Shown in pieces: positions 334-9,021 of a stretch of DNA of 12,329 nucleotides (positions are counted from its first letter, which is position 1; every line of letters begins with the position of its first letter). The DNA comes from a virus (taxonomy: Duplodnaviria; Heunggongvirae; Uroviricota; Caudoviricetes). Location: the IMG/VR virus record IMGVR_UViG_2737471824_000002. One strand, given 5' to 3'. The notes under the pieces are model-generated. The model was given only the letters and a program-made list of their open reading frames with translations, was not told the DNA's origin and made no database searches. Made by a program: the position numbers and the translations under genes.

Positions 334-348
334 GTTGGAGTCATTACC
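1..348 (+). mobile_element. IS1 insertion sequence, right-hand portion (window begins inside the element)
   Basis: Frame-1 translation from nt 1 matches the C-terminal part of IS1 InsB (…[35 protein letters not shown]…[11 protein letters not shown]), and the sequence ends with the IS1 terminal inverted repeat …ATCAATAAGTTGGAGTCATTACC at 326-348. Recognised from memory of IS1. Confidence 0.9.
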
Positions 349-544
349 TGGCAGCTGAAGGGCCACGCAGACCATTTATCCGGCAAAATTCCACGCGTAA
401 TCCGGTGGTAATTTCTTCTGCATCGCGGAGATTGAGCGCTGAAACATGAAGCTGGACATCGATACGACCATCGGATGGGGTGATAAGACCCTTGCCGCTT
501 TTGCCGTCAAAGGTTTTGACAATTCCTGTCATTTTACGGGACAA
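344..544 (-). CDS. cspF: CspF/CspH-like cold-shock-domain protein, 3' end altered by the IS1 insertion
   Basis: 66-aa [30 protein letters not shown]…[12 protein letters not shown], a CspF/CspH-type paralogue divergent from cspB. The final Arg codon straddles the IS1 end at 347-349 and the stop codon (344-346) lies inside the IS1 inverted repeat, so the native last ~5 codons are replaced. Confidence 0.75.
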
Positions 545-844: not shown

Positions 845-1060
845 ATGTCAAATAAAATGACTGGTTTAGTAAAATGGTTTAACGCTGATAAAGGTTTCGG
901 CTTTATTTCTCCTGTTGATGGTAGTAAAGATGTGTTTGTGCATTTTTCTGCGATTCAGAATGATAATTATCGAACCTTATTTGAAGGTCAAAAGGTTACC
1001 TTCTCTATAGAGAGTGGTGCTAAAGGTCCTGCAGCAGCAAATGTCATCATTACTGATTAA
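845..1060 (+). CDS. cspB: Cold shock protein CspB
   Basis: 71-aa [74 protein letters not shown] with RNP1/RNP2 cold-shock-domain motifs; matches CspB as I recall it. Confidence 0.95.
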
Positions 1061-1171
1061 AATTCATCGCTCGTCTGTATACGATAACGAAGAAGGCTGA
1101 TGCCTGAGTAGAGATACGGACAGAGTAGTGAATATTGGATCTCTTTAATAAAAAGTAAGGAGGTCCAATAC

Positions 1172-1207
1172 ATGAAACAATGGCTAGCATATTTGGCAAA
1201 ATCTTAA
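1172..1207 (+). CDS. Candidate 11-codon mini-ORF (MKQWLAYLAKS) with a strong Shine-Dalgarno; function unknown
   Basis: TAAGGAGGT at 1156-1164, 7-nt spacer, ATG at 1172, stop TAA at 1205-1207; followed by hairpins (TGCAG…CTGCA 1241-1255; CAGCAG…CTGCTG 1269-1287) and the terminator at 1342-1366. Confidence 0.2.
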   Translation: MKQWLAYLAKS

Positions 1208-1341
1208 TCAGGAAAAGTATGCTAACCATTGTGGTGAAGTGCAGGTTTGCTGCATGAATAGTTTTACAGCAGAAGCTAACTGCTGGCATGGCAAAACAAA
1301 GTGCGTAAGTGGATGACTCCCACAAAAAGCACCACAATCTC

Positions 1342-1366
1342 AAACCCGCTCAGGCGGGTTTTTTAT
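1342..1366 (+). terminator. Rho-independent terminator (mainly plus-strand; weak on the minus strand)
   Basis: Stem AAACCCGC (1342-1349), loop TCAG, stem GCGGGTTT, followed by a T-run (TTTTTTATTAT). On the minus strand the hairpin is preceded by an A-tract and followed by only UUUGAG. Confidence 0.7.
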
Positions 1367-1423
1367 TATCTGCTTTAAATATATTATTAAAATATAAAAA
1401 ATACTTGTTACTAATAAAATCAA

Positions 1424-1594
1424 TCAGGCTACAGCTTTAAGATTTGTCTGGAATACTTTGTTGCAATGAGGGCAGATCAAAAGGGCACCTTTTTGTACTC
1501 TTGAAAAACTGTGTTCTGACTCTTGGGTGCAGTTTGGGCAGGAACATTTAACGAGATAATTACGGCGTGATTTTGAGTTTTTACGTTCTGACAT
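1424..1594 (-). CDS. Small zinc-ribbon protein (CxCxxC…CxxC), function unknown
   Basis: ORF 1424-1645; the internal start at 1594 (MSERKNSKSRRNYLVKCSCPNCTQESEHSFSRVQKGALLICPHCNKVFQTNLKAVA, 56 aa) is preceded by AGGAA, while the upstream ATG at 1645 has no SD. Two Cys pairs ~20 residues apart suggest a zinc ribbon. Convergent with cspB. Confidence 0.45.
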   Translation of the reverse strand: MSERKNSKSRRNYLVKCSCPNCTQESEHSFSRVQKGALLICPHCNKVFQTNLKAVA

Positions 1595-1813
1595 AGGCTT
1601 TTCCTGTATAAATGGCCGTATACAGTACACTAAATATGAAAACATTTCTCGTATTATTATTTTATATATGACTTTCTTTCAAAATAATTACCCACATTTT
1701 TAATGTGTATGTTTTTTTAGCGCCGTTGAGAACAACGTGTGCTGTCAAAACTACCCCGTAGACTCCGATCTTTTCAAACATATTGCACCATCCGTGTACA
1801 TCGGGGTGAGGAT

Positions 1814-3954: not shown

Positions 3955-4143
3955 ATTACAAACCATATTCACTTTAGATGCCCGTGTTGTCATGGTTCCC
4001 AGTATAGAACATCATCTTTTGATGTTTCTGACATGAATCCTTTCGGGGCAAAATGTATCTTTTGTAAATCAATGATGATTACATTTGATAATATTTCACA
4101 ATACTTAAATGCCAGCCGTCTGTCGTTGGATTTAAAAAAGTGA
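3955..4143 (+). CDS. Small zinc-ribbon protein (CxCC…CxxC) with no canonical start codon; possible ATT initiation or a start-codon-mutated pseudogene
   Basis: Open frame from the stop at 3931-3933 to TGA 4141-4143, encoding …(I)TNHIHFRCPCCHGSQYRTSSFDVSDMNPFGAKCIFCKSMMITFDNISQYLNASRLSLDLKK. SD GAGGT at 3943-3947 with a 7-nt spacer to ATT at 3955. The first in-frame ATG (4033) lies after the first Cys cluster. A strong terminator follows at 4149-4171. Absent from the ORF track for lack of a canonical start. Confidence 0.45.
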   Translation: MTNHIHFRCPCCHGSQYRTSSFDVSDMNPFGAKCIFCKSMMITFDNISQYLNASRLSLDLKK

Positions 4144-4171: not shown

Positions 4172-4215
4172 GCTTGGTGTCTATTCGATGGATACTCACA
4201 TACTACGGTAACATC

Positions 4216-4446
4216 ATGAAAAAAATCATAGTTTTTTTTAACTCTGAACCAGCAGTGGTAGTGCCAGCGATGACTGGAGTTAACACCATCATGCGTGAAT
4301 ATCCAAATGGCGAAAAAACACACCTTACTGTAATGGCCGCAGGGTTTCCATCTCTGACCGGAGATCATAAAGTCATTTATGTAGCCGCGGATCGACATGT
4401 TACTTCAGAAGAAATTCTGGAAGCAGCAATAAGGCTCTTGAGTTGA
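4216..4446 (+). CDS. Small protein of the cold-shock moron cluster (possibly YnfN/YmcE-like), function unknown
   Basis: ORF 4174-4446; internal start MKKIIVFFNSEPAVVVPAMTGVNTIMREYPNGEKTHLTVMAAGFPSLTGDHKVIYVAADRHVTSEEILEAAIRLLS (76 aa). It sits between cspI and gnsB, where K-12 Qin has ynfN; start site uncertain (ATGs at 4174, 4216, 4270, 4294). Confidence 0.45.
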   Translation: MKKIIVFFNSEPAVVVPAMTGVNTIMREYPNGEKTHLTVMAAGFPSLTGDHKVIYVAADRHVTSEEILEAAIRLLS

Positions 4447-8446: not shown

Positions 8447-9021
8447 TGGCATTCAGAATGAGTGAACAACCACGGACCATAAAAATTTATAATCTGCTGG
8501 CCGGAACTAATGAATTTATTGGTGAAGGTGATGCATATATTCCGCCTCATACAGGTCTGCCAGCAAACAGTACCGATATTGCACCGCCAGATATTCCGGC
8601 TGGCTTCGTGGCTGTTTTCAACAGTGATGAGTCATCGTGGCATCTCGTTGAAGATCATCGGGGTAAAACGGTTTATGACGTGGCTTCCGGCGACGCGTTA
8701 TTTATTTCTGAACTCGGTCCGTTACCGGAAAATGTTACCTGGTTATCGCCGGAAGGGGAGTTTCAGAAGTGGAACGGCACAGCCTGGGTGAAGGATACGG
8801 AAGCAGAAAAACTGTTCCGGATCCGGGAGGCGGAAGAAACAAAAAACAACCTGATGCAGGTAGCCAGTGAGCATATTGCGCCGCTTCAGGATGCTGCAGA
8901 TCTGGAAATTGCAACGGAGGAAGAAATCTCGTTGCTGGAAGCATGGAAAAAGTATCGGGTATTGCTGAACCGTGTTGATACGTCAACTGCACAGGATATT
9001 GAATGGCCAGCACTGCCGTAG
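8446..9021 (+). CDS. tfaQ: Tail fibre assembly protein (Tfa)
   Basis: 191 aa [54 protein letters not shown]…; start overlaps the stf stop (TAATG at 8444-8448); Tfa-family chaperone adjacent to stf, as in lambda. Confidence 0.85.

Follow-up and report, generated by a model that had tools for sequence, protein, structure and literature searches.

In a 12,329-nucleotide (nt) stretch of DNA recorded as a Caudoviricetes virus (IMG/VR record IMGVR_UViG_2737471824_000002; the whole stretch is called the window below), the cold-shock gene cspB is followed by a conserved structured RNA that fills the 3′ untranslated region (3′ UTR) of this gene (1061–1366). Comparison among its copies, of which more than 230 were collected, shows that this RNA consists of several domains, that its helices are supported by covariation, that it is linked to csp genes, and that it can form alternative helices. 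It is apparently an undescribed RNA of mobile cold-shock genes, present in Escherichia coli K-12 and without a family in Rfam. The surrounding region 1060–1660 has matches in 1,650 of 5,426 complete E. coli genomes, mostly at 99% identity or more. In K-12 MG1655 the match is 100% and falls into the Qin cryptic prophage, where cspB and the small gene ynfU are annotated (window position x equals MG1655 position 1642399 − x, minus strand).

The cspB coding sequence (CDS) was placed at 845–1060 on the plus strand by the open reading frame (ORF) list and by annotation, which makes the structured RNA its 3′ UTR; with ~300 bases this UTR is longer than the CDS. It contains, in this order, hairpin A, two hairpins termed P0 and P1, a four-way junction and a terminator. 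Hairpin A (1062–1133) begins a few bases past the stop codon and is a long irregular stem with a small inner hairpin and a conserved purine-rich internal loop, in which CGAYAACGAWGA faces GAGUAGA. Hairpin P0 (1134–1169) has 14 base pairs (bp) between 1134–1147 and 1156–1169, with a predicted stability of −16.4 kcal/mol at 37 °C and −25.5 kcal/mol at 10 °C. Its 3′ arm holds a Shine–Dalgarno (SD) sequence, UAAGGAGGU (1156–1164). Hairpin P1 (1177–1232) has 15 bp formed by ACAATGGCTAGCATA with TATGCTAACCATTGT (1177–1191 with 1218–1232). The core of the four-way junction (1228–1338) is closed by a 9-bp long-range helix, P2 (1228–1236 with 1330–1338), and encloses three hairpins: H1 (1239–1255) and H2 (1267–1285, CAGCAG/CTGCTG), both perfect and short, and H3 (1309–1323). 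The H2 loop AAGCUAA and the junction strand AAAGUGCGUAAG (1298–1309) are invariant among the copies, and both are predicted to be single-stranded. The intrinsic terminator (1342–1366) comprises an 8-bp stem, AAACCCGC-TCAG-GCGGGTTT, with a 4-nt loop and a subsequent T-run; it is common to the convergent cspB and ynfU transcripts and overlaps neither P1 nor P2. Hairpin A, P0, P1 and the junction lie on the plus strand. Minimum free energy folding of 1058–1175 gave −43.2 kcal/mol (z = −6.5), a value that none of 200 shuffled sequences equalled, and folding of 1150–1375 gave z = −3.0. An initial annotation of the window had reported the SD, its 7-nt spacing to an 11-codon ORF, two hairpins, the terminator and a 56-residue ORF beyond it, all of which we located at the same coordinates or within a base of them. 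It had missed that the SD is part of a 14-bp hairpin, that the mini-ORF lies over an arm of P1, that P2 closes a four-way junction, and that the 56-residue ORF is already known as ynfU.

Its suggestion that this region is more than a passive 3′ UTR is borne out by the covariation. A three-way alignment of the Qin copy with those of phages Cyrano and PHB10 revealed compensatory changes in every hairpin. In a MAFFT alignment of 24 diverged copies, 94.7–95.2% of the cells in the P2/H1–H3/P1 structure are standard pairs, and 14 of the 36 pairs are changed on both sides. Sliding the structure by one to three columns left at most five two-sided pairs and 23–55% pairing, and none of 500 shuffles reached the observed values. 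A covariance model built from this alignment collected 88 copies, of which 50 differ in sequence; here 94.0% of the cells are paired and 16 pairs are compensated. This second alignment was fitted to the covariance model itself; across both alignments, slid controls gave at most seven two-sided pairs versus the 14–16 observed. P1 contributes seven two-sided changes among its 15 pairs. The outer stem of hairpin A has eight among 12 (14 aligned diverged copies; the hairpin was seen in 17) and is absent from PHB10-type copies. For P0, three of four stem polymorphisms in Qin-type copies preserve pairing, and two other copies (L003 and L107) have hairpins of different sequence at this position, while Escherichia sp. 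E1V33-type copies have neither P0 nor P1. Loops and linkers vary freely. Since G–U pairs are frequent in these helices, the csp-sense strand must be the folded one. Between classes, identity to the Qin copy amounts to 73–84% in the junction core, 69–82% in the csp CDS and 62–71% in the 5′ UTR, so that the junction core is at least as conserved as the coding sequence.

The same alignments point to two mutually exclusive helices. The base of the P1 3′ arm overlaps the P2 5′ strand: five bases (1228–1232) can pair either with 1177–1181 at the base of P1 or with 1334–1338 in the outer part of P2. Both options covary. At the P1 base, columns 26–85 contain UA in 12 and AU in seven sequences, and columns 27–84 contain CG in 20 and UA or AU in three; in outer P2, columns 84–196 contain GC in 18 and AU in three sequences, and columns 85–195 contain AU in 16 and UA in six. 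RNAalifold proposed another pairing, between GUGC in the invariant strand and GCAY, which overlaps the P2 3′ strand. It fits all sequences with one-sided changes only. In addition, the 5′ arm and loop of H1, GCAGGTTTG (1241–1249), are complementary at eight of nine positions to the 5′ arm of the terminator, CAAACCCGC (1341–1349). Judged by eye, the corresponding match is 8/8 in L107 and 7/8 in L003. From the sequence, this may be a possible antiterminator pairing.

The copies came from two kinds of search. In a sensitive DNA search with 1061–1420, the SSU5-like phage Cyrano and E. coli plasmids of 100 kb (p503025_100) matched 1226–1368 at 82%, and phage PHB10 gave a 75% match. Each of these matches lies directly downstream of a csp gene. 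Exact pattern scans anchored on the two invariant core stretches then provided further copies from more than 120 viral contigs, 29 species-representative genomes and 52 metagenome contigs. A scan anchored on H1 found no copy that lacks the H2-loop and junction anchors. Carriers are lambdoid prophages, SSU5-like phage-plasmids and the chromosomes of about ten enterobacterial genera; the species-representative genomes belong to Escherichia, Shigella, Enterobacter, Kosakonia, Kluyvera, Phytobacter, Leclercia, Raoultella, Superficieibacter, Atlantibacter and Pseudescherichia. All copies are confined to Enterobacteriaceae and most are of a near-identical Qin type. Where enough upstream sequence was available, a same-strand cspB/G-type gene was present within 480 nt upstream in 209 of 212 copies, and at least one of the three copies without it is an insertion junction. 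The RNA lies 130–220 nt downstream of the cspB/cspG-type gene.

What follows the RNA differs between carriers. Qin-type copies continue with the terminator and convergent ynfU, phage-plasmid copies with a terminator and convergent dnaE, and chromosomal copies with a same-strand, 75-residue ynfN-like gene, which in some of them is preceded by an antisense ynfU. Since the downstream neighbor varies, we conclude that the upstream csp gene is the constant partner. A canonical terminator with a U-tail is present in Qin, SSU5-like and L107-type copies and absent from most lineages. In copies without it, the 3′ strand of P2 leads directly into a T-rich stretch: the 12 nt past P2 contain on average 7.2 T in 35 distinct tails of this kind, versus 3.2 T where a canonical terminator is present (six tail types). 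In most lineages P2 thus resembles the stem of a branched terminator or 3′ barrier. One copy, from Raoultella lignicola (L166:4412–4637), carries eight tandem CCTGAAAG units in the strand between H1 and H2 and still scores 124 bits with the model. One Phytobacter ursingii genome contains three near-identical csp–RNA cassettes (L157, L168, L173). In a recurrent chromosomal cassette (L155, L157, L162 and others), a YnfU-family gene (minus strand) and a cspF-like gene (minus) precede the cspB-like gene (plus), the RNA, an optional ynfU (minus) and the ynfN-like gene (plus); several small cold-shock-linked genes thus travel together.

We did not find this RNA described in Rfam 15, in a 50-genome survey of noncoding RNAs (which mentions no csp motif) or in the literature that we searched, non-exhaustively. 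No Rfam 15 family reached its gathering threshold in 1077–1700, where the best match scored 22.5 bits versus a threshold of 51.4. At E ≤ 10 the window yielded only terminator-driven noise, and a Kosakonia copy was likewise without a family match. A weak Trp_leader match (21.7 bits versus a cut-off of 41) arises because of the terminator region. Within the window the covariance model recognizes a single copy with 155 bits; its next match, with 18.4 bits, is this locus read on the opposite strand, so there is no second copy after cspI or elsewhere. We also considered a tRNA-like cloverleaf and rejected it: the junction linkers of 2, 11, ~23 and 6 nt do not fit, and ARAGORN detected neither tRNA nor transfer-messenger RNA in the window. 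The invariant loop and junction sequences have no long-range pairing with the csp 5′ UTR or CDS that is kept in all classes; the candidate pairings reach only −7 to −11 kcal/mol. In the csp mRNA of chromosomal classes a pairing site at +104 recurs, with a weak energy of about −8 kcal/mol.

Published RNA 3′ ends show where the cspB transcript stops in K-12. The Term-seq data of Adams et al. (2021, PMC7815308) contain strong ends on the MG1655 minus strand, at position 1641226 in one growth condition and 1641224 in both others. In the window these are plus-strand positions 1173 and 1175, which places them 4–6 nt past P0, within the mini-ORF AUG or immediately after it. Counts for these ends range from 0.6 to 2.5 million, versus about 23,000 for the smallest minus-strand entries that we saw in this data set; a 3′ end within the cspB 5′ UTR has a count of 57,000. 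Therefore, the abundant species at 37 °C stops at P0 and contains neither an intact mini-ORF nor the junction. On the ynfU strand the same study lists a 3′ end at 1641060 (plus strand), window position 1339. Its curated tables, which cover only 37 °C, where cspB is poorly expressed, contain no cspB-strand 3′ end at the terminator. In a check for an Hfq-linked small RNA (sRNA), the cspB 3′ UTR was likewise missing from a table of sRNA predictions based on RNA interaction by ligation and sequencing (RIL-seq), which does list cspF.cspB.IGR and the cspB CDS. Both observations speak against an independent, abundant sRNA gene, one of the two options that the initial annotation had preferred. The supplements of single-molecule real-time (SMRT)-Cappable-seq and Cappable-seq studies have no transcription start entry for this locus.

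The other option was a leader peptide or attenuator, based on the 11-codon ORF. This ORF (MKQWLAYLAKS*, 1172–1207, plus strand) starts with an ATG at 1172 after a 7-nt spacer (1165–1171), and its SD, TAAGGAGGT at 1156–1164, is the sole copy in the window. By chance, 0.07 copies would be expected, and at least one copy occurred in 14 of 200 shuffled sequences. The SD sits in the 3′ arm of P0, paired to CUCUUU with two G–U pairs, and the ORF covers the 5′ arm of P1. Both are restricted to Qin-type copies; other classes keep P1 without ATG or SD. Thus, of the features that the initial annotation proposed to check for conservation, the hairpins are kept with compensatory changes and the mini-ORF is not conserved, even within the Qin type. 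Across 21 haplotypes of this type the ORF varies at five sites, and none of the changes is synonymous: TGG to TGA, Leu5Pro (in 16 of 21), Ala9Val, Lys10Ile and Ser11Thr. Two changes affect the SD (1161 A to C and 1163 G to A). The ORF is missing from the translated small ORFs in the supplement of Stringer et al., the dominant 3′ end falls inside its start codon, and no same-strand gene follows in the window. We therefore infer that SD and mini-ORF are a Qin-lineage by-product of P0 and P1, at most a local modulator, rather than a conserved leader peptide. The ORF is probably incidental and not a functional unit.

How may this RNA work? We give about even chances to the reading that it acts in cis on the csp transcript, as a module that makes and protects the 3′ end. 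In most lineages P2 and the adjoining U-rich run would themselves act as a terminator or as a barrier to exonucleases. With P1 and P2 in competition, temperature, the level of Csp RNA chaperones or another factor could tip the transcript toward a closed 3′ end or else toward read-through or decay. The K-12 transcript at 37 °C would be cut or trimmed back to P0 and accumulate in this form. Four observations weigh against this interpretation. Nearest-neighbor folding yields the full four-way junction in some lineages only, while others favor full P1 together with the GUGC/GCAY pairing. The strongest 3′ end in vivo lies upstream of the junction, so that, at least in K-12 at 37 °C, the junction is not visibly protective. 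Sequence invariance in the loop and the junction is commoner in RNAs that engage a particular ligand, protein or RNA than in those that act as a plain 3′ barrier. Finally, since exact core patterns served as bait, the H2 loop and the junction strand appear invariant in part because of the way in which copies were selected. Predicted folds at 37 and 15 °C also differ between lineages, and nearest-neighbor energies do not settle which state dominates. A bolder reading, which we consider improbable, is that the four-way junction represents a new class of sensor RNA placed after its partner gene: a branched terminator responsive to temperature, Csp proteins or a ligand. Here the competition between P2 and P1 would decide whether the transcript is ended and protected, read through into ynfN-type genes, or degraded.

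One alternative is a trans-acting RNA. P1, the junction and the terminator (~1174–1370) might be cut from the cspB mRNA between P0 and P1 and serve as sRNA or protein sponge by way of AAGCUAA and AAAGUGCGUAAG. A strong end exactly between these hairpins is what such cleavage would give, the invariant stretches are predicted to be single-stranded, Qin, SSU5-like and L107-type copies provide a canonical terminator with a U-tail, and the core is under selection even where no gene follows. This idea is nonetheless doubtful, since the curated 37 °C tables lack the matching end at the terminator, the RIL-seq-based predictions do not include the 3′ UTR, most lineages have no canonical terminator, and csp mRNAs offer no conserved complementary site. 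The multi-helix junction with its invariant nucleotides could also belong to a riboswitch-like terminator/antiterminator that senses a ligand, temperature or Csp and controls read-through into the ynfN-like gene, a target that the Qin copy would have lost. The mutually exclusive and covarying P1 base and outer P2 fit this idea, as do the U-run directly past P2 in copies without a canonical terminator and, in the window, the 8/9 complementarity of H1 to the terminator arm. Moreover, a same-strand ynfN-like gene follows in 79 of 87 terminator-less copies, sometimes only ~50 nt past P2. We rate this explanation as rather unlikely, because an antisense ynfU stands between RNA and ynfN in 49 of these 87 copies, and because Qin, SSU5-like and L107-type copies conserve the core with compensatory changes despite having no same-strand gene downstream. 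There is also no candidate ligand, and the constant link is to the upstream csp gene and not to any single downstream gene.

Three further explanations appear much weaker. Control of the downstream hairpins and terminator by translation of the 11-codon ORF would make sense of its perfect SD and 7-nt spacing. A ribosome on the 5′ arm of P1 would open this helix and favor P2. As in FourU-type thermometers, a U-rich strand pairs with the SD, partly through G–U pairs, and masks it, although the FourU model itself scores 16.6 bits versus a cut-off of 60. Restriction to Qin-type copies, a natural variant without P0 and P1, exclusively nonsynonymous or nonsense polymorphisms, a weakened SD in several haplotypes, the very stable P0 and the position of the dominant 3′ end render this highly improbable. 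We attach just as little credence to the RNA being functionless cargo that hitch-hikes with recently transferred csp cassettes. The abundance of near-identical Qin-type copies and the confinement to Enterobacteriaceae would be expected of cargo, but the core is as conserved as the CDS between classes with clearly diverged Csp proteins, and its helices change in a compensatory manner far beyond the shuffled and slid controls while loops and linkers vary freely. A functional pair in which the basic zinc-ribbon protein YnfU binds the RNA is also very improbable. In Qin, PHB10-type, Kosakonia, Kluyvera and Superficieibacter copies the RNA faces a convergent gene of the ynfU family, a second family member flanks the divergent cspF-like gene, and the N-terminus of YnfU is rich in Lys and Arg. 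Conversely, phage Cyrano carries the RNA without a YnfU match at E ≤ 0.001, a Klebsiella phage carries ynfU with neither csp nor RNA, and no ynfU adjoins the RNA in 53 of 209 scored copies. Since each is found without the other, we can eliminate an obligate link between them.

The cspB RNA can be compared with several characterized systems. The cspA thermoregulator (RF01766) belongs to the same gene family and the same transcripts: it is a structured cis-element thought to take alternative folds, and both cspB and cspI of the window carry it. Unlike the new RNA, which lies wholly in the 3′ UTR, RF01766 spans the 5′ UTR and CDS (684–1076 for cspB, so that the match ends at 1076). The two have no similarity in sequence or model, and the new RNA is absent from cspI. 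Small RNAs such as CpxQ and SroC derive from 3′ UTRs and are released by processing. The cspB RNA shares with them the 3′ UTR site, the use of the mRNA terminator and, here, an in vivo end at the boundary between mRNA and structured part. It differs in that the curated tables (37 °C) show no stable fragment from the part downstream and the RIL-seq-based table does not list the region, in its far more elaborate fold, and in the absence of a canonical terminator from most lineages. Riboswitch aptamers of the S-adenosylmethionine (SAM)-I type are multi-helix junctions closed by a switching helix. Invariant unpaired junction nucleotides, a closing helix that competes with an alternative pairing, and a terminator or U-run directly downstream are common to both, whereas the cspB RNA follows its constant gene, has no Rfam match, and in some copies precedes no gene at all. 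With trpL-type attenuators it shares a short SD-led ORF that overlaps one arm of competing hairpins before an intrinsic terminator. Here, however, the ORF is not conserved and has no regulatory codons, its SD is buried in a 14-bp hairpin, and no regulated gene comes next.

Beyond the terminator lies ynfU (b4776; 1424–1594, minus strand), which encodes a 56-residue zinc-binding protein with two CPxC knuckles. This part of the locus is already known: the gene is annotated in RefSeq, and Weaver et al. detected the tagged protein and remarked on the two knuckles. The protein scores 107.3 bits with Pfam PF23499 (cut-off 27) and 79.4 bits with NCBIfam NF038384 (cut-off 36); it is the type member and fully alike to this family. 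In an alignment of 11 sequences, C19/C22 and C41-P42/C44 are invariant. A promoter-like site upstream of ynfU (1653–1682, minus strand; TTGAAA, 18-nt spacer, AATAAT) was found by consensus scan only, and the region contains just as many sites of this kind as chance would supply. The initial annotation was correct that a small Cys-rich gene stands beside cspB, but the suspected kinship with the gene beside cspI did not hold. This gene, ynfQ (3955–4143, plus strand), lies directly after cspI and is YmcF-like; because it starts with ATT, only its last 36 codons appear in the mechanical ORF list. YnfU and YnfQ gave no BLASTP alignment at E ≤ 100 and an hhalign probability of 1.2% with the 11-sequence YnfU profile, and they belong to separate Pfam families, PF23499 for YnfU and PF23641 for the YmcF/YnfQ proteins encoded after cspG and cspI. 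By sequence comparison, the two are not demonstrable paralogues. In other genera, the 56–62-residue protein encoded past the cspF-like gene also belongs to the YnfU family. In the Klebsiella phage ST13-OXA48phi12.4 (L235), ynfU adjoins a holin gene as it does in Qin, with neither csp nor RNA, and ~750 nt beside it are unannotated.

Some observations concern other parts of the locus. The Qin gene order is quuQ(ydfT)-ynfS-cspF / cspB-ynfU-essQ-ydfR-rrrQ-rzpQ-cspI-ynfQ-ynfR-ynfN-gnsB. The ynfN frame extends upstream to a start at MKKIIVFF... (4174–4446, plus strand). The resulting 75-residue protein matches the 75-residue family encoded downstream of the RNA in Enterobacter, Kosakonia and Leclercia, a family without counterpart in Pfam or NCBIfam. 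In MG1655 the annotation covers only the C-terminal 51 residues, and the annotated start may be too far downstream. Within 1–544 of the window, the end of an insertion sequence, IS1 (C-terminal ORF of InsB, 67–333), adjoins cspF, which is cut to 66 residues (344–544, minus strand) versus 70; because of this junction, the window departs here from the wild-type arrangement of MG1655. Several E. coli genomes have IS1 or IS200C inserted inside 1060–1660, a region that consequently tolerates disruption. A full-length match to Rfam IS009 (221 bits) lies within the tail-fiber assembly gene tfaQ (8789–8987, plus strand).

These results close two loose ends of the locus: the SD-led mini-ORF is probably no gene, and the second zinc-ribbon ORF is ynfU, whose product has no sequence relationship to YnfQ. 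They also bear on a wider question. The regulation of E. coli cold-shock genes has so far been explained almost wholly by the thermosensor in the 5′ UTR and by mRNA decay. If the domain after cspB controls formation or stability of the 3′ end, it would offer a testable account of how cells selectively preserve or remove these transcripts while they acclimate to cold. If the junction is indeed a sensor, cold-shock regulation in E. coli and related bacteria would gain a further level, at the 3′ end.

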